From a virus (taxonomy: Duplodnaviria; Heunggongvirae; Uroviricota; Caudoviricetes), in the IMG/VR virus record IMGVR_UViG_2740892229_000020: DNA of 15,728 nt. One strand, written 5' to 3'. The notes under the pieces were generated by a model that was given only the letters and a program-made list of their open reading frames with translations, was not told the DNA's origin and did not search any database. Made by a program: the position numbers and the translations under genes. Below are positions 2,513-15,728 of this stretch, one piece after another (position 1 is the stretch's first letter; each line of letters begins with the position of its first letter).

Positions 2513-2986
2513 ATGGAAAAGCCTAGCTTCCCACCTCTTCTTACAGCAGGATTTCATGATATGGATAGTGATGGCATCAAGTCTCTTTGTGTCGACACCT
2601 TCCCAAAATCCGTTAGAAGAAGTATGCTATACTGTAATTTTATACAGCTTATTGAGCAATTTAAACTTGTTAATCAGCAGTGTCTATGTTTCTCTGAAGT
2701 GTGGATCGATGGTTCATTCACTACAGAGAAACCTGAACCTGATGACATAGATATACTCGTGGTCGTCGATTATTTGGCCCTAAACTCTTTGCCAAACACG
2801 CTGATGCCATTGGTTAGCTCATTGTTAAATAGAGATTTTATTAAAGAAAACTACAGCATTGACGTTCTTTTGCTGCCTGAAAATCATCCAGAAATCGATT
2901 ATAGTGAAAGGCGAAGTTACTGGAGAGGGTGGTTTGGTTTTGATCGGAAGGAGAATCCTAAAGGCCTCGTGAGGGTAATGTTATGA
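2513..2986 (+). CDS. Small predicted nucleotidyltransferase-fold protein (157 aa), first gene of an AT-rich two-gene module at the rexAB-equivalent position
   Basis: Complete ORF with a Shine-Dalgarno-like AAGGA upstream. Contains a GS-x10-DxD motif (WIDGSFTTEKPEPDDIDILVVVD) characteristic of Pol-beta-type/minimal nucleotidyltransferases. Noticeably AT-rich compared with flanking phage genes. The fold call is from motif inspection only. Confidence 0.6.
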   Translation: MEKPSFPPLLTAGFHDMDSDGIKSLCVDTFPKSVRRSMLYCNFIQLIEQFKLVNQQCLCFSEVWIDGSFTTEKPEPDDIDILVVVDYLALNSLPNTLMPLVSSLLNRDFIKENYSIDVLLLPENHPEIDYSERRSYWRGWFGFDRKENPKGLVRVML

Positions 2987-3915
2987 GCGAAGAAAAAACA
3001 TTCAACTCCCTCAAGGAGCGAATTGCGTTCATTCAACGCGATGTGGATCTGCTTGCTCAAAATAAGGGGAGATCATTTGCTGATGACATTATATTTAGAT
3101 CACTTGACTCCCATCTGAGCGATCTCCGAGAGAGACAACGTGCAATCGATAACCAACATCCTTTACGTGATTTCATGGAGTTGAGATTAAAAGGTGTTTT
3201 GGTCGATTTCGGGTCTATTCCGTTAGATATTCTATCTGTAATTTCAGGTAATCTCGCATCCCTTGTACAGAAAGCAGTTTACCGACTTGGATCTGGGAAA
3301 GATTCTAGTCGTGTGCCGATTGATGTTAAAAAATCATTAGACATGAGATTGGCAGACTTGCGTCCAGGTTCGACGAAGTTAGGTGTTACTTTTTCTACTG
3401 GTTCTTGCGAGCTCATCGAAACAGTATCCAGTCATGCTGTTAAGGAGATTTTTGCACTACTCTCATCCATTGATGAAGAAACATTCACGGCTAAAATTGC
3501 CGAAATTGGTTCGCAATCAACAGCTAACCTAAAAAACATCATAAATGAGTGCGAAAAATATAGTCTTAACTTTGATCTTACTTGGATTGGACCTTTAAGT
3601 GATGGTACCAGACAAGTGTCAATTTCTTCAGAAGATATAAAAAAACTGAATGCTCGCTTAGCTTTAACGAAGGTCATTCAGCTACCGGATGAGCATATAT
3701 CAGGCGAACTTGCTATTTTATCCATGTACGGGAAATTGGAGATTGCAAGCGAGCTTGGAAAAATAAAGGCTTCTTATCCGATTGATATGTTAGGAGAAAT
3801 TCAAAGTAAATATAAAGTTGGTGAACGAATATCGCTCGTAGTAAGCGTTTCTGAGATTCACAATGAAAGATTAGGAACATCACGACGTAACTACATGGTT
3901 AAAAAAATCGAATAG
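2983..3915 (+). CDS. Hypothetical protein (310 aa), second gene of the two-gene module; function unknown
   Basis: Start ATG overlaps the stop of the upstream gene (ATGA at 2983-2986), with GAGGG 9 nt upstream, indicating translational coupling. AT-rich. Followed by a strong intrinsic terminator. No catalytic motif recognised; contains RSLDSH (an Rx4H pattern) that is not diagnostic on its own. Confidence 0.7.
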   Translation: MSEEKTFNSLKERIAFIQRDVDLLAQNKGRSFADDIIFRSLDSHLSDLRERQRAIDNQHPLRDFMELRLKGVLVDFGSIPLDILSVISGNLASLVQKAVYRLGSGKDSSRVPIDVKKSLDMRLADLRPGSTKLGVTFSTGSCELIETVSSHAVKEIFALLSSIDEETFTAKIAEIGSQSTANLKNIINECEKYSLNFDLTWIGPLSDGTRQVSISSEDIKKLNARLALTKVIQLPDEHISGELAILSMYGKLEIASELGKIKASYPIDMLGEIQSKYKVGERISLVVSVSEIHNERLGTSRRNYMVKKIE

Positions 3916-4882: not shown

Positions 4883-4892
4883 NNNNNNNNNN
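4883..4892. other. Run of 10 N (assembly gap or masked junction)
   Basis: Exactly 10 ambiguous bases; the following 104 bp (4893-4996) are a near-copy of 5007-5110. Confidence 0.95.
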
Positions 4893-4996: not shown

Positions 4997-5006
4997 NNNN
5001 NNNNNN
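4997..5006. other. Run of 10 N (assembly gap or masked junction)
   Basis: Exactly 10 ambiguous bases between two near-identical copies of the same coding fragment. Confidence 0.95.
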
Positions 5007-6501: not shown

Positions 6502-6511
6502 NNNNNNNNNN
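6502..6511. other. Run of 10 N (assembly gap or masked junction)
   Basis: Sequence after the run restarts inside the gam 3' end and repeats bet with substitutions. Confidence 0.95.
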
Positions 6512-7291: not shown

Positions 7292-7301
7292 NNNNNNNNN
7301 N
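7292..7301. other. Run of 10 N (assembly gap or masked junction)
   Basis: The 93 bp after the run (7302-7394) repeat the 93 bp before it (7199-7291) with a few substitutions. Confidence 0.95.
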
Positions 7302-7481
7302 CAGGAGATTAACACTCTGCTGATCGCCCTGGATAAAACATGGGATGACGACTTATTGCCGCTCTGTTCCCAGATATTTCGCCGCGACATTCGCGCATCG
7401 TCAGAACTGACACAGGCCGAAGCAGTGAAAGCTCTTGGATTCCTGAAACAGAAAGCCACTGAGCAGAAGGTGGCAGCATGA
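7302..7481 (+). CDS. bet: Bet 3'-terminal fragment (continues into exo)
   Basis: In-frame [59 protein letters not shown] ending at TGA 7479-7481, which overlaps the exo ATG at 7478 (ATGA). Confidence 0.75.
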
Positions 7482-8158
7482 CACCGGACATTATCCTGCA
7501 GCGTACCGGGATCGACGTGAGAGCTGTCGAACAGGGGGATGATGCATGGCACAAATTACGGCTCGGCGTCATCACCGCTTCAGAAGTTCACAACGTGATA
7601 GCAAAGCCCCGCTCAGGAAAGAAGTGGCCTGACATGAAAATGTCCTACTTCCACACCCTGCTGGCTGAGGTTTGCACCGGTGTGGCTCCGGAAGTTAATG
7701 CTAAGGCGCTGGCCTGGGGAAAACAGTACGAGAACGACGCCAGAACCCTGTTTGAATTCACTTCCGGCGTGAATGTTACTGAATCCCCGATCATCTATCG
7801 CGACGAAAGTATGCGCACCGCCTGCTCTCCCGATGGTTTATGCAGTGACGGCAACGGCCTTGAACTGAAATGCCCGTTTACCTCCCGGGATTTCATGAAG
7901 TTCCGGCTCGGTGGTTTCGAGGCCATAAAGTCGGCTTACATGGCCCAGGTGCAGTACAGCATGTGGGTGACGCGAAAAGATGCCTGGTACTTTGCCAACT
8001 ATGACCCGCGTATGAAGCGTGAAGGCCTGCATTATGTCGTGATTGAGCGGAATGAAAAGTACATGGCGAATTTTGACGAGATGGTGCCGGAGTTCATCGA
8101 AAAAATGGACGTGGCACTGGCTGAAATTGGTTTTGTATTTGGGGAGCAATGGCGATGA
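7478..8158 (+). CDS. exo: Exo (Red-alpha 5'-3' exonuclease), 226 aa
   Basis: Full-length match to lambda exonuclease ([65 protein letters not shown]…GEQWR); ATGA overlap with bet. Confidence 0.92.
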
Positions 8159-8316
8159 AGCATCCTCACGATAATATCCGGGTAGGCGCGATCACTTTCA
8201 TCTACTCCGTTACAAAGCGAGGCTGGGTATTTCCCGGCCTTTCTGTTATCAGAAATCCACTGAAAGCACAGCGGCTGGCTGAGGCGATAAATAATAAACG
8301 GGGGCTGTATGACTGA
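8155..8316 (+). CDS. Small protein, lambda orf60a-like with an altered C-terminus (53 aa)
   Basis: ATG 8155 overlaps the exo stop (ATGA). [53 protein letters not shown]; the first ~47 residues match the 60-aa orf60a-like ORF at 9389..9571. Confidence 0.5.
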
Positions 8317-8866
8317 TTTCACCGGAAGCAATACTCCTGCCGAACATCGCGACAGCTGGCGCACACCACCAGAGATTTTTGCTGCGCTTAATGCAGAGTT
8401 CGTTTTTCAACTTGATGCTGCCGCCAGCGAAAAAAACCGACTATGTCGGCTTTTTATCTCACAGGAGCAGAACACATTAACCACTTCATGGCCTGAAGCA
8501 ATGGGATATGCCTCTGGTTATGTCTGGTTGAATCCACCATACAGCAATATTTCCCCTTTTGTGAAAAAGGCAGCCACTGAAAACAAATTCAGTAGTGTGG
8601 GATGTGTAATGTTATTGCCTGCTGACACATCTGTCGGATGGTTTCATGAAGCGATACAAACCGCCAGTGAGGTCAGATTCATCACGGCAGGACGACTGGC
8701 ATTTATTAACCCACTCACTGAGAAACCCGTCAGTGGAAATAATAAAGGCTCGATGCTCATTATCTGGCACCCATACCCCCGTACACACTGCCACTTTACG
8801 ACCGTTGATCGTGGAGAGTTGATGGCGTTCGGCTCAAGGATTCTTGCCCGTCGGGAGGCTGCATGA
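8309..8866 (+). CDS. Phage-type DNA N6-adenine methyltransferase (Dam family), 185 aa
   Basis: Catalytic NPPY motif (YVWLNPPYSN). Size and overall sequence character fit the small phage Dam N6-A methyltransferase family. Start overlaps the upstream ORF. Confidence 0.75.
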   Translation: MTDFTGSNTPAEHRDSWRTPPEIFAALNAEFVFQLDAAASEKNRLCRLFISQEQNTLTTSWPEAMGYASGYVWLNPPYSNISPFVKKAATENKFSSVGCVMLLPADTSVGWFHEAIQTASEVRFITAGRLAFINPLTEKPVSGNNKGSMLIIWHPYPRTHCHFTTVDRGELMAFGSRILARREAA

Positions 8867-8942
8867 CAACCACGGAATGCATTTTTCTGGCAGCGGGCTT
8901 CATATTCTGTGTGCTTATGCTTGCCGACATGGGACTTGTTCA

Positions 8943-9158
8943 ATGACACCTCAGCAGGAAAACGCCCTTCGCAGCATTGCCCGTCAGGCTAATTCTGAAA
9001 TCAAAAAAGCCAGACAGCAGTTTCCGGATAAAAACGTCGATGACATTTGCCGTAGCGTACTAAAGAAGCACCGCGAAACGGTAACGCTGATGGGATTCAC
9101 ACCGACTCATTTAAGCCTGGCGATCGGCATGTTAAACGGCGTCTTTAAGGAACGGTGA
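8943..9158 (+). CDS. Hypothetical early-left protein, 71 aa (lambda orf61 region)
   Basis: MTPQQENALRSIARQANSEIKKARQQFPDKNVDDICRSVLKKHRETVTLMGFTPTHLSLAIGMLNGVFKER; present identically in both cassette variants (second copy inside 9716..10027). An N-terminal extension from an upstream start (TTG 8844) is possible. Confidence 0.55.
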   Translation: MTPQQENALRSIARQANSEIKKARQQFPDKNVDDICRSVLKKHRETVTLMGFTPTHLSLAIGMLNGVFKER

Positions 9159-9180
9159 ACATGAAAAGCAAAATCATCAG

Positions 9181-9204
9181 GGAGCTACAGGCTCCTTTTT
9201 TATT
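9181..9204 (+). terminator. Candidate intrinsic terminator (tL-like) inside the early-left operon
   Basis: Stem GGAGC (9181-9185) / GCTCC (9191-9195), loop TACAG, then TTTTTTATT. Confidence 0.45.
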
Positions 9205-9265
9205 GTTCGCATTCATCCTCAAGCGTATTAACCAACAATTCAGGGATTAATGGAAGATGGCAGAC

Positions 9266-9275
9266 NNNNNNNNNN
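9266..9275. other. Run of 10 N (assembly gap or masked junction)
   Basis: Sequence before the run ends at …TGGAAGATGGCAGAC, which recurs at 10118-10135; sequence after the run restarts inside the exo 3' end. Confidence 0.95.
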
Positions 9276-9392
9276 GTTGAGCGGGATGAAAAGTACATAG
9301 CGAGTTTTGACGAGATGGTGCCGGAGTTCATCGAAAAAATGGACGAGGCACTGGCTGAAATTGGTTTTGTATTTGGGGAGCAATGGCGATGA
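9276..9392 (+). CDS. exo: Exo 3'-terminal fragment (second allele; redundant with 8042-8158)
   Basis: In-frame [38 protein letters not shown] followed by TGA 9390-9392. Confidence 0.6.
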
Positions 9393-9571
9393 CGCATCCT
9401 CACGATAATATCCGGGTAGGCGCGATTACTTTCGTCTACTCCGTTACAAAGCGAGGCTGGGTATTTCCCGGCCTTTCTGTTATCCGAAATCCACTGAAAG
9501 CACAGCGGCTGGCTGAGGAGATAAATAATAAACGAGGGGCTGTATGCACAAAGCATCTCCTGTTGAGTTAA
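9389..9571 (+). CDS. Lambda orf60a-like protein, 60 aa
   Basis: ATG overlaps the exo stop (ATGA). [60 protein letters not shown] matches my recall of lambda orf60a. Confidence 0.65.
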
Positions 9572-9735
9572 GAACGAGTATCGAGATGGCACATAGCCTC
9601 GCTCAAATTGGAGTCAGGTTTGTGCCAATACCAGTAGAAACAGACGAAGAATTTCATACGTTAGCCGCATCCCTTTCACAAAAGCTGGAAATGATGGTGG
9701 CGAAAGCAGAAGCAGATGAGAGAGACCAGGTATGA
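9544..9735 (+). CDS. Lambda orf63-like protein, 63 aa
   Basis: 63-codon ORF overlapping the orf60a 3' end and overlapped by the next ORF by 20 nt, which is the arrangement I recall for orf63/orf61 in lambda. Confidence 0.65.
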   Translation: MHKASPVELRTSIEMAHSLAQIGVRFVPIPVETDEEFHTLAASLSQKLEMMVAKAEADERDQV

Positions 9736-10027
9736 CAACCACGGAATGCATTTTTCTGGCAGCGGGCTTCATATTTTGTGTGCTTATGCTTGCCGACATG
9801 GGACTTGTTCAATGACACCTCAGCAAGAAAACGCCCTTCGCAGCATTGCCCGTCTGGCTAACTCTGAAATCAAAAAAGCCAGACAGCAGTTTCCGGATAA
9901 AAACGTCGATGACATTTGCCGTAGCGTACTAAAGAAGCACCGCGAAACGGTAACGCTGATGGGATTCACACCGACTCATTTAAGTCTGGCGATCGGCATG
10001 TTAAACGGCGTCTTTAAGGAGCGATGA
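9716..10027 (+). CDS. Hypothetical early-left protein (lambda orf61 region), 103 aa from ATG 9716; shares its C-terminal 71 aa with 8943..9158
   Basis: ATG 9716 lies 20 nt before the orf63 stop. An alternative shorter start is MTPQQ at 9812, which has a GGGA Shine-Dalgarno-like element. Confidence 0.55.
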   Translation: MRETRYDNHGMHFSGSGLHILCAYACRHGTCSMTPQQENALRSIARLANSEIKKARQQFPDKNVDDICRSVLKKHRETVTLMGFTPTHLSLAIGMLNGVFKER

Positions 10028-10049
10028 ACATGAAAAGCAAAATCATCAG

Positions 10050-10073
10050 GGAGCTACAGGCTCCTTTTTTATT
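10050..10073 (+). terminator. Candidate intrinsic terminator (second copy of the 9181..9204 hairpin)
   Basis: GGAGC (10050-10054), loop TACAG, GCTCC (10060-10064), then TTTTTTATT. Confidence 0.45.
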
Positions 10074-10125
10074 GTTCGCATTCACCCTCAAGCGTATTAA
10101 CCAACAATTCAGGGATTAATGGAAG

Positions 10126-10347
10126 ATGGCAGACATCATTGATTCAGCATCAGAAATTGAAGAATTACAGCGCAACACAGCAATAAAAATGCGCCGCCTG
10201 AACCACCAGGCTATATCTGCCACTCATTGTTGTGAGTGTGGCGATCCGATAGATGAACGAAGACGCCTGGTCGTTCAGGGTTGTCGGACTTGTGCAAGTT
10301 GCCAGGAGGATCTGGAGCTTATCAGTAAACAGAGAGGTTCGAAGTGA
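10126..10347 (+). CDS. TraR/DksA-family C4 zinc-finger protein (lambda orf73-like), 73 aa
   Basis: Four-cysteine motif CCECGDPIDERRR…GCRTCASCQ with TraR-like size and spacing. Lambda orf73 is a TraR homologue from memory. Confidence 0.75.
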   Translation: MADIIDSASEIEELQRNTAIKMRRLNHQAISATHCCECGDPIDERRRLVVQGCRTCASCQEDLELISKQRGSK

Positions 10348-10760
10348 GCGAAATTAACTCTCAGGCACTGCGTGAGGCGGCAGTAGCAATTGAAACAGTA
10401 GCAACGCCTCAAAAATTGCTGGCATTTCGTATGAAAGTCACACCTCAGGTTGTGCTGGCACTGCTGGATGAACGGGAAAGAAACCAGCAATACATCAAAC
10501 GCCGCGACCAAGAGAACGAGGATATTGCGTTAACGGTAGGGAAGTTGCGCGTTGAGCTTGAGGCAGAAAAACAGCGGGCAAAGGATCTGTTTATGGAAAA
10601 TGCTCGGCTTAAGTCAGGTATAGCCGGTCTGATACACCTCGGTATTCGATATGCAGATGTTGAGGTCATGAGAATTGCTGGAGATGCCCAGCTTTCTACC
10701 CCATGCACTGACAGCATCATAAACAGCATTGCAACAGGCATTCGCATCAAAGGAGAGTGA
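10344..10760 (+). CDS. Ead/Ea22-like protein (138 aa)
   Basis: GTG start overlapping the upstream stop (GTGA). N-terminus MSEINSQALREAA…, LDERERNQQYIKRRDQENEDIALTVGKLRVELEAEKQ coiled-coil segment and C-terminal …GIRIKGE are typical of Ead/Ea22-like prophage proteins as I recall them. Confidence 0.55.
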   Translation: MSEINSQALREAAVAIETVATPQKLLAFRMKVTPQVVLALLDERERNQQYIKRRDQENEDIALTVGKLRVELEAEKQRAKDLFMENARLKSGIAGLIHLGIRYADVEVMRIAGDAQLSTPCTDSIINSIATGIRIKGE

Positions 10761-10761
10761 T

Positions 10762-11427
10762 ATGAGCGCTATAACCAAAGAACGTATCAAATTATTCATT
10801 AAAAATCCGCTTGATAACGGACTTACTCGTGGCGAACAAATGGAACTGGCACGAATTGCACTGGCATCACTGGAACGCGAACAGATTCGCCACGAGCATG
10901 CCAAATGGTCTGACTCCACATTTGGCTGCGTTGGCCCCATTGGTCCGCTGAAACATCTCTCAAAAGAGGCACTGGAAGCCGCAGCCGAACCTGACGATCT
11001 CAGCGAGTGGGCTGATATGCAGTTCCTGTTGTGGGATGCACAGCGCCGTGCTGGTATCAGTGATGCTGAAATTACCGCTGCTATGGAAAATAAATTGAAG
11101 ATCAACATGGAGCGCCAGTGGCCTGAACCAAAAGATGGTGAGCCTCGTTTGCACATTAAAGAACCCGGCAACTCTCCGGTAACTCCGGATGGTTGGATAA
11201 GCTGTAGTGAGCGAATGCCTGAAATGGGAGAGCGACAATGCTATGTGTTAGCAGCTGACTTTAAAAACAACTACCCACCAAACATCCCCAACACTCAGGT
11301 CGGCGTATATGGCGACTGGTTTAATGATGGCAAGCCCACTTGGGATGACGGTGATGGCGAAGACCTGTATCTCAAAGAGGTAACCCACTGGATGCAGCTA
11401 CCAGAACCGCCGCAGGAGGTGAAATGA
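10762..11427 (+). CDS. DUF551-like prophage protein (221 aa)
   Basis: AGGAG 6 nt upstream of ATG 10762. C-terminal segment …CYVLAADFKNNYPPNIPNTQVGVYGDWFNDGKPTWDDGDGEDLYLKEVTHWMQLPEPPQ matches the characteristic DUF551 C-terminus from memory. Confidence 0.65.
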   Translation: MSAITKERIKLFIKNPLDNGLTRGEQMELARIALASLEREQIRHEHAKWSDSTFGCVGPIGPLKHLSKEALEAAAEPDDLSEWADMQFLLWDAQRRAGISDAEITAAMENKLKINMERQWPEPKDGEPRLHIKEPGNSPVTPDGWISCSERMPEMGERQCYVLAADFKNNYPPNIPNTQVGVYGDWFNDGKPTWDDGDGEDLYLKEVTHWMQLPEPPQEVK

Positions 11428-11510
11428 TGAATTGGCCTGAAGCATTCACCGCAGTTGGAGTTGCAATAGCGGTGGCATTTATTCTGTATTCGCTTTTCCG
11501 CTGGGGATAA
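11424..11510 (+). CDS. Small hydrophobic peptide (28 aa), predicted single transmembrane helix
   Basis: Strong Shine-Dalgarno AGGAGG (11414-11419) 4 nt upstream; ATG overlaps the upstream stop (ATGA). MMNWPEAFTAVGVAIAVAFILYSLFRWG. Below the ORF-track size cutoff. Confidence 0.5.
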   Translation: MMNWPEAFTAVGVAIAVAFILYSLFRWG

Positions 11511-11514
11511 AGGA

Positions 11515-11757
11515 ATGTTCGCTCTGATTCAACGTGGTCAGATATACACGGACAGAGCCGGATACCCTGTGGTGATTACTCGCAGTACTCAGCACTCAGT
11601 GTTCTTTCGACGCATGGACGGGCGCTCCGGACGGGTACGCATTGGTGAGTTCAACAACCTGTTCGAACATATTGACCAACAGGAGTACCGCAAAATTCTG
11701 GCGGGCACTGAGCAGGAAATGCGCCTGAAAAAATTACGCGCAATGCAACGGAGGTGA
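11515..11757 (+). CDS. Hypothetical protein, 80 aa (possibly DUF4222-like)
   Basis: Complete ORF in the early-left gene string; MFALIQRGQIYTDRAGYPVVITRSTQHSVFFRRMDGRSGRVRIGEFNNLFEHIDQQEYRKILAGTEQEMRLKKLRAMQRR. Family call is a weak recollection. Confidence 0.55.
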   Translation: MFALIQRGQIYTDRAGYPVVITRSTQHSVFFRRMDGRSGRVRIGEFNNLFEHIDQQEYRKILAGTEQEMRLKKLRAMQRR

Positions 11758-11783
11758 TACATGCATACGGCTTTTGAGTTCTG

Positions 11784-11793
11784 NNNNNNNNNN
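11784..11793. other. Run of 10 N (assembly gap or masked junction)
   Basis: Interrupts an ORF that begins at ATG 11761 (MHTAFEF…) and resumes in-frame sequence after the run. Confidence 0.95.
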
Positions 11794-11991: not shown

Positions 11992-12594
11992 TCATTCAGT
12001 ATCATCACGCGCGGTCTGTGCATATGTCACTACCGCACCTAATATATTAATTTTCTTTTCAACATAGATAATATTATCGTACTCATAATTGCCATACGGA
12101 TAGCAAATGCGAATATTCTCATGTAGTTCGGGGTCATCCACCTCAGCTCCAGAACAACTTTTTGAACTACCGGAAGTATACCGATACGGTGCAACATAAG
12201 ACGATGTCTCTCCAGGCAAAAAATAAGTTAGTGTCGTAAGGGGTATAATCAGAAAAAATCCAGCAAATATGCACATCCCTGCATAAACCTTAAGGTATGC
12301 TGACAGACTCTTCCAGCCTCTTTGTTTTACTATCCCCTTCTTAACCCAAAACAGAGATAACAGAAAAGCTATTCCCATGCTAAACAGAATGTAATAGTGG
12401 GATATACTCTGATTAAGAAACGTGACCCTGTAGATATCTGCCCGCCACCAGAAGAAAAGGAAAATAAAGATCAGCCCTGAAACTGTCATGCAAATCAAAT
12501 AAGGATACGAATCTTTTTTCATGTTTAGCGCCCATAAAATTTTTCCTGACCCGGACAAATTTACCATCCATTTTTTGCGCAGAAAATAGCTCAT
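11992..12594 (-). CDS. Predicted integral membrane protein (about 3 TM helices plus a C-terminal soluble domain), AT-rich reverse-oriented accessory gene
   Basis: Minus-strand ORF of 200 aa (176 aa if the start is the internal Met at 12520-12522). Hydrophobic segments YLICMTVSGLIFIFLFFWW, YYILFSMGIAFLLSLFWV and VYAGMCIFAGFFLIIPLTTLTYFL. Opposite orientation to all surrounding phage genes and markedly AT-rich. Confidence 0.6.
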   Translation of the reverse strand: MSYFLRKKWMVNLSGSGKILWALNMKKDSYPYLICMTVSGLIFIFLFFWWRADIYRVTFLNQSISHYYILFSMGIAFLLSLFWVKKGIVKQRGWKSLSAYLKVYAGMCIFAGFFLIIPLTTLTYFLPGETSSYVAPYRYTSGSSKSCSGAEVDDPELHENIRICYPYGNYEYDNIIYVEKKINILGAVVTYAQTARDDTE

Positions 12595-13043: not shown

Positions 13044-13262
13044 ATGTACTTGACACTTCAGGAGTGGAACGCACGCCAGCGACGCCCAAGAAGCCTTGAA
13101 ACAGTTCGTCGATGGGTACGCGAGTGCAGGATATTCCCTCCTCCGGTTAAGGATGGAAGAGAGTATCTGTTCCACGAATCAGCGGTAAAGGTTGACTTAA
13201 ATCGACCAGTAACAGGTAGCCTTTTGAAGAGGATCAGAAATGGGAAGAAGGCGAAGTCATGA
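13044..13262 (+). CDS. xis: Excisionase Xis (72 aa)
   Basis: MYLTLQEWNARQRRPRSLETVRRWVRECRIFPPPVKDGREYLFHESAVKVDLNRPVTGSLLKRIRNGKKAKS matches lambda Xis; overlaps the int start by 23 nt as in lambda. Confidence 0.92.
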   Translation: MYLTLQEWNARQRRPRSLETVRRWVRECRIFPPPVKDGREYLFHESAVKVDLNRPVTGSLLKRIRNGKKAKS

Positions 13263-14310
13263 GCGCCGGGATTTACCCCCTAACCTTTATATAAGAAACA
13301 ATGGATATTACTGCTACAGGGACCCAAGGACGGGTAAAGAGTTTGGATTAGGCAGAGACAGGCGAATCGCAATCACTGAAGCCATACAGGCCAACATTGA
13401 GTTATTTTCAGGACACAAACACAAGCCTCTGACAGCGAGAATCAACAGTGATAATTCCGTTACATTACATTCATGGCTTGATCGCTACGAAAAAATCCTG
13501 GCCAGCAGAGGAATCAAGCAGAAGACACTCATAAATTACATGAGCAAAATTAAAGCAATAAGGAGGGGTCTGCCTGATGCTCCACTTGAAGACATCACCA
13601 CAAAAGAAATTGCGGCAATGCTCAATGGATACATAGACGAGGGCAAGGCGGCGTCAGCCAAGTTAATCAGATCAACACTGAGCGATGCATTCCGAGAGGC
13701 AATAGCTGAAGGCCATATAACAACAAACCCTGTCGCTGCCACTCGCGCAGCAAAATCAGAGGTAAGGAGATCAAGACTTACGGCTGACGAATACCTGAAA
13801 ATTTATCAAGCAGCAGAATCATCACCATGTTGGCTCAGACTTGCAATGGAACTGGCTGTTGTTACCGGGCAACGAGTTGGTGATTTATGCGAAATGAAGT
13901 GGTCTGATATCGTAGATGGATATCTTTATGTCGAGCAAAGCAAAACAGGCGTAAAAATTGCCATCCCAACAGCATTGCATGTTGATGCTCTCGGAATATC
14001 AATGAAGGAAACACTTGATAAATGCAAAGAGATTCTTGGCGGAGAAACCATAATTGCATCTACTCGTCGTGAACCGCTTTCATCCGGCACAGTATCAAGG
14101 TATTTTATGCGCGCACGAAAAGCATCAGGTCTTTCCTTCGAAGGGGATCCGCCTACCTTTCACGAGTTGCGCAGTTTGTCTGCAAGACTCTATGAGAAGC
14201 AGATAAGCGATAAGTTTGCTCAACATCTTCTCGGGCATAAGTCGGACACCATGGCATCACAGTATCGTGATGACAGAGGCAGGGAGTGGGACAAAATTGA
14301 AATCAAATAA
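13240..14310 (+). CDS. int: Tyrosine integrase Int (lambda-type), 356 aa
   Basis: Full-length match to lambda Int (MGRRRSHERRDLPPNLYIRNNGYYCYRDPRTGKEFGLGRDRRIAITEAIQ… catalytic region …HELRSLSARLYEKQISDKFAQHLLGHKSDTMASQYRDDRG). Confidence 0.95.
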   Translation: MGRRRSHERRDLPPNLYIRNNGYYCYRDPRTGKEFGLGRDRRIAITEAIQANIELFSGHKHKPLTARINSDNSVTLHSWLDRYEKILASRGIKQKTLINYMSKIKAIRRGLPDAPLEDITTKEIAAMLNGYIDEGKAASAKLIRSTLSDAFREAIAEGHITTNPVAATRAAKSEVRRSRLTADEYLKIYQAAESSPCWLRLAMELAVVTGQRVGDLCEMKWSDIVDGYLYVEQSKTGVKIAIPTALHVDALGISMKETLDKCKEILGGETIIASTRREPLSSGTVSRYFMRARKASGLSFEGDPPTFHELRSLSARLYEKQISDKFAQHLLGHKSDTMASQYRDDRGREWDKIEIK

Positions 14311-14399
14311 TGATTTTATTTTGACTGATAGTGACCTGTTCGTTGCAACAAATTGATAAGCAATGCTTTTTTATAATGCCAACTTAGTATAAAAAAGCA
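14311..14399. other. attL: P' arm with arm-type sites, and the 15-bp core TTAGTATAAAAAAGC (14385-14399) at the prophage-host junction
   Basis: Reverse complement of 14368-14399 reads GCTTTTTTATACTAAGTTGGCATTATAAAAAAGC, which contains the lambda att core GCTTTTTTATACTAA followed by P'-arm sequence. The sequence beyond 14399 (…AGCAGGCTTCA…) matches the attB B-arm flank upstream of ybhC. Confidence 0.85.
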
Positions 14400-14444: not shown

Positions 14445-15728
14445 GTGAACACATTTTCAGTTTCCCGTCTGGCGCTGGCATTGGCTTTTGGCGTGACGCT
14501 GACCGCCTGTAGCTCAACCCCGCCCGATCAACGTCCTTCTGATCAAACCGCGCCTGGTACCTCTTCTCGCCCGATTCTGTCGGCAAAAGAAGCGCAGAAT
14601 TTCGATGCTCAACACTATTTTGCATCCCTGACACCAGGTGCTGCAGCGTGGAATCCTTCCCCGATTACCCTGCCTGCGCAACCTGACTTTGTTGTCGGCC
14701 CGGCGGGCACTCAAGGTGTAACGCATACCACGATTCAGGCGGCGGTAGATGCGGCAATTATCAAGCGTACCAACAAGCGCCAGTATATTGCCGTGATGCC
14801 TGGTGAGTATCAGGGAACGGTATATGTCCCTGCCGCTCCGGGTGGAATTACTCTGTACGGTACAGGTGAAAAACCGATTGATGTGAAGATTGGGCTTTCC
14901 CTTGATGGTGGCATGAGCCCTGCCGACTGGCGTCACGACGTCAACCCGCGCGGCAAATATATGCCAGGTAAACCAGCGTGGTATATGTACGATAGCTGCC
15001 AGAGCAAACGCAGCGACAGTATCGGTGTTCTCTGCTCTGCGGTCTTCTGGTCACAAAACAATGGCCTGCAACTGCAAAATCTGACCATCGAAAACACGCT
15101 GGGCGATAGCGTAGATGCAGGTAACCATCCGGCGGTGGCACTGCGTACTGATGGTGACCAGGTACAGATTAACAACGTTAACATTCTCGGTCGTCAGAAC
15201 ACCTTCTTTGTCACCAACAGCGGTGTGCAGAACCGTCTGGAAACGAATCGTCAGCCGCGTACGCTGGTGACCAACAGCTACATTGAAGGGGATGTGGATA
15301 TCGTTTCTGGTCGCGGCGCAGTGGTGTTCGATAACACCGAATTCCGCGTGGTGAACTCACGTACTCAGCAAGAAGCGTATGTGTTTGCACCGGCTACGCT
15401 GTCCAACATTTACTACGGTTTCCTCGCCGTAAACAGCCGTTTCAATGCTTTCGGTGATGGTGTGGCGCAACTGGGCCGCTCGCTGGATGTTGATGCCAAT
15501 ACCAACGGTCAGGTGGTGATCCGTGATAGCGCCATCAACGAAGGTTTTAACACGGCTAAACCGTGGGCCGATGCGGTGATCTCTAATCGTCCGTTTGCGG
15601 GTAATACCGGCAGCGTAGATGATAACGACGAAATACAGCGCAATCTGAATGACACTAACTACAACCGCATGTGGGAATACAATAACCGCGGCGTGGGTAG
15701 TAAAGTGGTTGCAGAGGCGAAGAAGTAA
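14445..15728 (+). CDS. ybhC: YbhC, outer-membrane lipoprotein of the pectinesterase-like / acyl-CoA thioesterase family (host gene flanking the lambda attachment site), 427 aa
   Basis: GTG start; lipoprotein signal with lipobox LTAC; full-length match to E. coli YbhC from memory; stop TAA at 15726-15728 is the last codon in the window. Confidence 0.9.
   Translation: MNTFSVSRLALALAFGVTLTACSSTPPDQRPSDQTAPGTSSRPILSAKEAQNFDAQHYFASLTPGAAAWNPSPITLPAQPDFVVGPAGTQGVTHTTIQAAVDAAIIKRTNKRQYIAVMPGEYQGTVYVPAAPGGITLYGTGEKPIDVKIGLSLDGGMSPADWRHDVNPRGKYMPGKPAWYMYDSCQSKRSDSIGVLCSAVFWSQNNGLQLQNLTIENTLGDSVDAGNHPAVALRTDGDQVQINNVNILGRQNTFFVTNSGVQNRLETNRQPRTLVTNSYIEGDVDIVSGRGAVVFDNTEFRVVNSRTQQEAYVFAPATLSNIYYGFLAVNSRFNAFGDGVAQLGRSLDVDANTNGQVVIRDSAINEGFNTAKPWADAVISNRPFAGNTGSVDDNDEIQRNLNDTNYNRMWEYNNRGVGSKVVAEAKK

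Follow-up and report, generated by a model that had tools for sequence, protein, structure and literature searches.

A putative Dam-type methyltransferase and orf63 as apparent alleles of one slot in the exo-xis region of lambdoid prophages

The exo-xis region of lambdoid phages has been described by the Wegrzyn and Donaldson groups as a series of conserved genes with a variable downstream part (PMC3824215, PMC8614690, PMC10789677). A methyltransferase in the slot considered here goes unmentioned in these papers: the word does not appear in PMC8614690, is confined to text on host proteomics in PMC10789677, and in PMC3824215 stands only in the title of a reference. Here we analyze the 15,728-nucleotide (nt) IMG/VR virus record IMGVR_UViG_2740892229_000020 (Caudoviricetes), the whole of which we call the window, in which two versions of the segment downstream of exo follow one another: copy A, carrying a gene for an N-6-adenine-methyltransferase of the Dam type (the Dam allele), and copy B, carrying orf63.

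The closest described relatives of the methyltransferase are members of the PF05869/TIGR01712 family, among them HP1 Dam, T1 Dam, and M.EcoVT2Dam, with which it has in common the NPPY and D-A-A-A motifs, the small size (about 170 to 185 amino acids [aa]), and the condition of a phage orphan. HP1 Dam and T1 Dam are GATC-specific. M.EcoVT2Dam, which has likewise been reported to be GATC-specific (PMC6602927, citing Radlinska and Bujnicki 2001), represents a type located between ninB and ninE in Shiga toxin (Stx) and other lambdoid phages, whereas the window enzyme lies in the early leftward exo-xis arm and, being 46% identical to the enzyme of the nin region and 39% identical to HP1 Dam, constitutes a distinct subfamily. 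A different kind of enzyme has been described in the int-exo arm of Stx2 phages, namely, M.EcoGV/M.EcoPA8orf6770P, which was annotated as Dam but is an MT-A70 protein with a DPPW motif, prefers 16S rRNA, requires the partner PNB-2, and provides an example of how prophage adenine methyltransferases can influence prophage induction (PMC10810198). As for copy B, it is about 98% identical at the DNA level to lambda's exo-xis region (positions 30604 to 31410), with the same gene order and the same place after exo on the pL strand.

Taking all the data together, a scaffold artifact combined with the known mosaicism of lambdoid phages is likely to be the best overall explanation of this locus. We are highly confident that the adjacency of the two cassettes is artificial and that they are two alleles of one slot derived from different prophages. 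The window is interrupted by six runs of N, each of exactly 10 N (4883-4892, 4997-5006, 6502-6511, 7292-7301, 9266-9275, and 11784-11793), which cut it into seven segments, S1 to S7, and the right flank of every run repeats the sequence to its left with 96 to 98% identity. The run at 9266-9275 separates copy A (in S5, 7302-9265) from copy B (in S6, 9276-11783), copy A ending 9 nt inside the TraR gene and copy B beginning 117 nt before the end of exo. The features of the locus are as follows.

7478..8158, plus strand: exo (lambda exonuclease), last gene before the variable slot, in S5; PF09588 YqaJ, E 5.6e-30; phrog_149 exonuclease.
8155..8316, plus strand: orf60a-like gene, 53 aa (DUF1317), overlapping exo by ATGA; PF07026, E 5.2e-32; RefSeq WP_000682294.1.
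8309..8866, plus strand: filler of allele A, phage N-6-adenine-methyltransferase, 185 aa; PF05869, E 2.3e-56; WP_000129285.1.
8863..8946 (copy A) and 9732-9815 (copy B), plus strand: hypothetical 27-aa hydrophobic open reading frame (ORF), MTTTECIFLAAGFIFCVLMLADMGLVQ, read from the sequence.
8943..9158, plus strand: orf61 homologue, 71 aa; phrog_303, E 4.7e-36; RefSeq WP_000188870.1.
9179..9205, plus strand: hairpin and T run resembling an intrinsic terminator, between orf61 and orf73; terminator scan.
9257..9265, plus strand: first 9 nt of orf73/TraR, end of S5; alignment to copy B.
9266..9275, no strand: scaffold spacer of exactly 10 N, artificial junction; table of N runs and redundant flanks.
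9276..9392, plus strand: 3' end (117 nt) of the second exo copy, start of S6; alignment to 8043-8158.
9389..9571, plus strand: orf60a, 60 aa, lambda-type full length; PF07026, E 2.1e-40; near-identical to lambda orf60a.
9544..9735, plus strand: filler of allele B, orf63 (DUF1382), 63 aa; PF07131, E 3e-31; phrog_292; lambda orf63.
9812..10027, plus strand: second copy of the orf61 homologue, 71 aa; phrog_303, E 8e-35.
10048..10074, plus strand: second copy of the terminator-like hairpin; terminator scan.
10126..10347, plus strand: orf73 (TraR/DksA-type zinc finger); PF01258, E 1.6e-08; phrog_54.
10344..10760, plus strand: ea22-like gene, end of the conserved exo-xis block in S6; PF13935, E 2.2e-21.

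The genes and the hairpin listed in an initial annotation of the window are thus real and placed where it had put them, with family matches far beyond chance; finished genomes annotate the exo gene as "lambda exonuclease family protein." That annotation had also seen both cassettes converge on the same 71-aa ORF, the same hairpin, and the TraR-like gene. This applies to the ORF and to the hairpin, of which the stem AGGGAGCTACAGGCTCCTT and the T run are identical at 9179-9197 and 10048-10066 and nearly identical in lambda, while the TraR-like gene is represented in copy A by its first 9 nt only, followed by the 10 N.

The origin of the segments became apparent from finished genomes. In NZ_CP024289.1, S1 (99.98% identity), S4 (99.4%), and S5 (99.9%) tile a single prophage, located at tRNA-Arg/fimZ and carrying an intD integrase, with a gap of 20 bp between S1 and S4 and an overlap of 93 bp between S4 and S5; the same three segments are contiguous in viral contig L048 as well, and S2, S3, and S6 are missing in both cases. 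S3 (99.7%) and S6 (99.92%) correspond to the mlrA-site prophage of NZ_CP027355.1, and S2 and S7 (each 100%) correspond to the ybhC-site prophage of the same genome, 1.9 Mb away from the mlrA-site one. S7 contains an exact copy of the lambda att core, GCTTTTTTATACTAA, at 14384-14398 on the minus strand between int (13240-14310) and ybhC (14445-15728), which by its sequence marks the junction of prophage and chromosome at the classical lambda attachment site beside ybhC. The Dam allele and an S7-type integrase are found together in some contigs. Judged from these matches, the window interleaves contigs of at least three prophages (at the argU, mlrA, and ybhC sites) in the order of the lambda map. 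Reference-guided ordering of contigs gives exactly such output, which explains both the N spacers and the order: contigs of at least three lambdoid prophages residing together in one draft genome would have been arranged along the lambda map and joined by spacers of 10 N. We rejected the idea that the N runs represent database masking of a contiguous sequence, given that the flanks restart and tile different prophages. Since the window is chimeric, any finding that depends on a duplication or a gene neighborhood spanning the N runs is artifactual; gam, bet, exo, orf60a, and orf61 are each present twice.

That both cassettes belong to one locus might be read into the initial annotation, and a real tandem partial duplication within one prophage (exo-orf60a'-dam-orf61-partial exo-orf60a-orf63-orf61-orf73), with the Ns hiding 10 unresolved bases, would indeed account for two copies that are adjacent and co-oriented in the window; moreover, paralogues sometimes occur in this region of lambdoid phages, as in Phi24B, which has two orf63-like genes (PMC8614690). 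Nevertheless, we regard a tandem as extremely improbable, in view of the uniform length of all six N runs with their restarting redundant flanks, the assignment of the interleaved segments to three different prophages, and the contiguity of S1-S4-S5 elsewhere. Neither an uninterrupted junction nor the same arrangement in another record was found: each of the 60 viral contigs with the exact Dam junction has one exo, one DUF1317 gene, one Dam gene, one orf61, and one TraR gene, with no orf63 and no N run, and none of 5,426 finished Escherichia coli genomes contained both cassettes in one locus. When the two-cassette span was used as a query at a coverage of at least 80%, 1,982 records passed, because one region matches both copies of the flanks, and tandems were therefore judged by the maximum coverage and the span in the record instead. 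The best place among the finished genomes covered 93% of the query within 2,001 bp, as long a stretch as a single exo-Dam-TraR unit occupies, and the uncovered part was orf63-specific, thus indicating a single unit and not a tandem. The initial annotation had also allowed for both cassettes coming from a single misassembled locus, which does not literally apply either: they come from two distinct loci, both genuine, whose joining is artificial.

The redundancy might also reflect a mixture in the sample, be it of two strains or in a metagenome bin, instead of several prophages within one genome, and the 2 to 4% divergence between the overlaps would be compatible with a mixture of strains too. 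We consider this unlikely, since single finished genomes routinely hold several such prophages, with up to 6 to 11 matching places each, and two prophages of a single strain, 2013C-4991, account for four of the seven segments with 99.7 to 100% identity. In addition, both alleles occur together in the finished genome NZ_CP020092.1, in two prophages 1.9 Mb apart and with an identical orf61 protein beside each; a short-read assembly of a strain like this one would be expected to yield redundant contigs of the kind seen in the window. The adjacency of the cassettes is artificial under the mixed-sample explanation as well.

With the artificial junction set aside, the two copies can be compared as alleles. 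Pairwise alignment of the copies, which the initial annotation had proposed, mapped the boundaries of the exchange exactly, from a shared ATG to an ATGA overlap. The left flanks (8043-8311 and 9277-9546, 269 and 270 nt) are 96.3% identical with one indel of 1 nt, the right flanks (8863-9265 and 9732-10134, 403 nt) are 98.0% identical, and between them lie inserts that cannot be aligned with each other, one of 551 nt specific to the Dam allele (8312-8862) and one of 185 nt specific to orf63 (9547-9731). Homology on the left extends through GGGGCTGTATG, comprising the ribosome-binding region and the start codon of the variable gene, and homology on the right begins at ATGACAACC, the ATGA shared by the stop codon of the variable gene and the start codon that follows. 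Because of the 1-nt indel, the orf60a product of copy A is shortened at its C terminus to 53 aa, compared with 60 aa in copy B. The mosaic genomes of lambdoid phages are a textbook case of exchange at gene borders, and the suggestion of a lambdoid module swap made in the initial annotation is borne out by unrelated inserts bounded by similar flanks, by boundaries at gene borders, and by the occurrence of each allele alone, in the corresponding place, in finished prophages that are independent of one another. On this evidence, the two cassettes are alleles swapped by lambdoid mosaic module exchange at the orf60a-orf61 slot, and the exchange would have proceeded by recombination within the conserved flanks.

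Both alleles are established in other genomes. The copy B arrangement is present in 174 of the 181 matching phage records and comprises, in order, DUF1317, DUF1382, phrog_303, TraR/DksA, and Ead/Ea22, the conserved exo-xis block. In copy A the methyltransferase takes the place of orf63, as it does in the 242 finished E. coli genomes that hold most of S5 and in PhiR30_1 (PV340558.1), the only phage record containing copy A in full (100% identity), in which the protein is 100% identical and the same exo-orf60a-methyltransferase-orf61-TraR order is found in single copy. For a census of the slot we used as an anchor a neutral stretch of 33 nt in DUF1317 that is identical in both copies; it replaced a 62-aa orf60a query, which had recovered only loci of the B type, the C terminus being allele specific. 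Among the 77 viral contigs found in this way, about 47 carried orf63, about 27 carried Dam, one encoded a 250-aa protein, and in two (L052 and L066) no more than the initial ~90 nt of the Dam gene remained, followed by downstream exo-xis genes, a pattern that suggests deletions, starting inside Dam, which removed Dam, orf61, and orf73. In about one-third of the close relatives orf63 is therefore dispensable, even though the literature treats it as a member of the conserved block, and an intact orphan adenine methyltransferase stands in for it. This makes a small addition to the exo-xis literature. Both alleles are already known and publicly annotated, and specialists in lambdoid mosaicism or phage methyltransferases will find them unsurprising. 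The allelic relationship between orf63 and the methyltransferase, visible in public annotation, may be undiscussed in print, as no paper discussing such a replacement was found in the literature on PF05869 and on orphan Dam in lambdoid prophages.

Downstream of the slot, alignment to lambda identified the 71-aa ORF as the homologue of lambda orf61 and the TraR-type gene as lambda orf73, with which it shares an identical translation. While orf61 is full length in the window, an additional A within a run of A truncates it to 61 aa in lambda (L005:2040-2060 versus window 9865-9880), in agreement with the truncation of lambda orf61 in Donaldson 2021 (PMC8614690). In the window and in Stx phages the frame runs on to a product of 71 aa (or up to about 103 aa). 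The upstream ATG for the long form, at 9716 in copy B, is lost in the Dam allele; a longer form would be possible in copy A from an ATG at 8877, and RefSeq annotates the 71-aa form. Between the variable gene and orf61 lies the 27-aa ORF MTTTECIFLAAGFIFCVLMLADMGLVQ, which overlaps both neighbors by ATGA and is intact in copy A, in copy B, and in lambda (L005:1903-1986). It had no family match in profile searches and is unannotated in lambda J02459 and in the RefSeq records looked at; it might encode a small membrane peptide.

We then considered the methyltransferase itself. It scored 190.5 bits with PF05869 (cutoff, 28.1) over profile positions 1 to 168 of 169 and 165.6 bits with the NCBI equivalog TIGR01712 (cutoff, 97.05), and it retains every residue that is invariant in the family and has the motif LNPPYS at residues 74 to 79 (NPPY at 75 to 78). 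An acidic motif for binding of S-adenosylmethionine (AdoMet) and the (D/N)PPY motif were found on a class I methyltransferase fold, and a structure comparison showed this fold to be that of N6-adenine methyltransferases; a sequence search of the Protein Data Bank (PDB) revealed no relative. By these predictions, the protein is a solid member of the phage N-6-adenine-methyltransferase family. Of 57 loci, 56 have an intact ORF, and WP_000129285.1, already annotated as a phage N-6-adenine-methyltransferase and occupying the equivalent place in loci of finished genomes (99.9% DNA identity to S5), is the same gene with no substantive difference. A second PF05869 paralogue, 46% identical, is often present between ninB and ninE in related prophages (L001:2162-2689 and L003:4458-4985), so that some prophages could encode two diverged paralogues, one per early operon. 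Some homologues in Enterobacter (P0050, P0060, P0068, P0069, P0072, and P0087) are about 73% identical, longer (253 to 284 aa), and accompanied by a precomputed match to the cytosine-C5 family PF00145; these long forms could represent a fusion or a miscalled start.

Specificity for GATC is most likely, because characterized relatives of the protein (VT2-Sa, HP1, and T1 Dam) are reported to be GATC specific, its identity to characterized members being 39 to 46%, and an anti-restriction or epigenetic role of an orphan Dam, as raised in the initial annotation, is plausible by analogy. Whether GATC targeting and a role in anti-restriction would both hold is an evenly balanced question. An enzyme that recognizes some other DNA sequence, that has low specificity, or that acts on RNA, perhaps together with a partner protein as in M.EcoPA8orf6770P, would be in keeping with the modest identity to the characterized GATC members, with the lack of a separate target recognition domain in 185 aa, and with the fold comparison, in which the top match was the RNA enzyme PCIF1 and the Erm/KsgA rRNA methyltransferases scored close to DNA Dam enzymes; moreover, the same arm has already furnished a precedent in phages (PMC10810198). 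That precedent, however, belongs to MT-A70, and although it is likewise an adenine methyltransferase encoded in the early arm of a prophage, the window gene has NPPY instead of DPPW, matches PF05869 only among Pfam families, with no MT-A70 profile, and has no such partner adjacent. We therefore rejected identity with the rRNA methyltransferase of PMC10810198, which, the families differing, is a warning and not a model for the window gene. Since TIGR01712 has the status of an equivalog at NCBI and its cutoff is exceeded by a wide margin, and since three divergent members of the family (VT2, HP1, and T1) are reported to be GATC specific, we judge a non-GATC or RNA target to be rather improbable. 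Weak matches to Type II methyltransferase models in PADLOC might in turn point to the modification half of a restriction-modification system, but the best PADLOC match was to "orphan methyltransferase," and no restriction or nuclease gene was adjacent in any context examined, the neighbors always being DUF1317 and orf61. This makes such a system a very remote prospect. Observed/expected counts of GATC per segment showed nothing distinctive.

If the protein is a GATC-directed Dam, its setting suggests how it could act. Within the early leftward operon, the gene comes directly after gam-bet-exo and upstream of the terminator-like hairpin, and N-modified transcription is expected to pass such a terminator. 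Expression of the enzyme from pL would set in early upon infection or induction. AdoMet would be bound in the D36-A-A-A pocket and the NPPY loop would direct N6 methylation of adenine, most likely in GATC, so that fast-replicating phage DNA could be kept fully methylated. The benefit would be protection from enzymes that cut only unmethylated GATC, together with independence from limiting host Dam.

The slot has a third, rare filler, the 250-aa protein, found at L003:12693-13445 (the ybhC-site prophage of NZ_CP027355.1) and in L187. A match was obtained to phrog_887, "queuine tRNA-ribosyltransferase" (E 4e-99), and none in Pfam or NCBIfam; the protein may be a TGT/DpdA-like enzyme of 7-deazaguanine DNA modification, in which case two of the three fillers would be nucleic acid-modifying enzymes. 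The literature on DpdA in E. coli prophages yielded nothing on the Dam allele of the slot. We think it doubtful that the orf60a-orf61 slot is a dedicated early hot spot for nucleic acid-modifying enzymes, at which the Dam allele does more than duplicate host Dam. Were this so, the Dam allele, which directly follows the Red genes and takes the place of orf63, reportedly a pro-lytic gene, could act on RNA or on a non-GATC target, could protect intermediates of recombination against MutH-dependent mismatch repair, or could shift the balance between lysis and lysogeny.

Two further observations concern the remainder of the window. Just downstream of the cI-like repressor (1703-2431), in the position of lambda rexAB, the plus strand carries a gene pair, 2513-2986 (a 157-aa DUF6932 protein) and 2983-3915 (310 aa), which matches the PADLOC candidate defense system PDC-M63 (component A, E 7e-43; component B, E 4e-42) and is possibly a prophage-encoded antiphage system. 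Between the exo-xis genes and xis, an AT-rich stretch (GC content, about 0.40) encodes on the minus strand (11992-12594) a predicted membrane protein of 200 aa, which had no PADLOC match; this gene looks like a moron.

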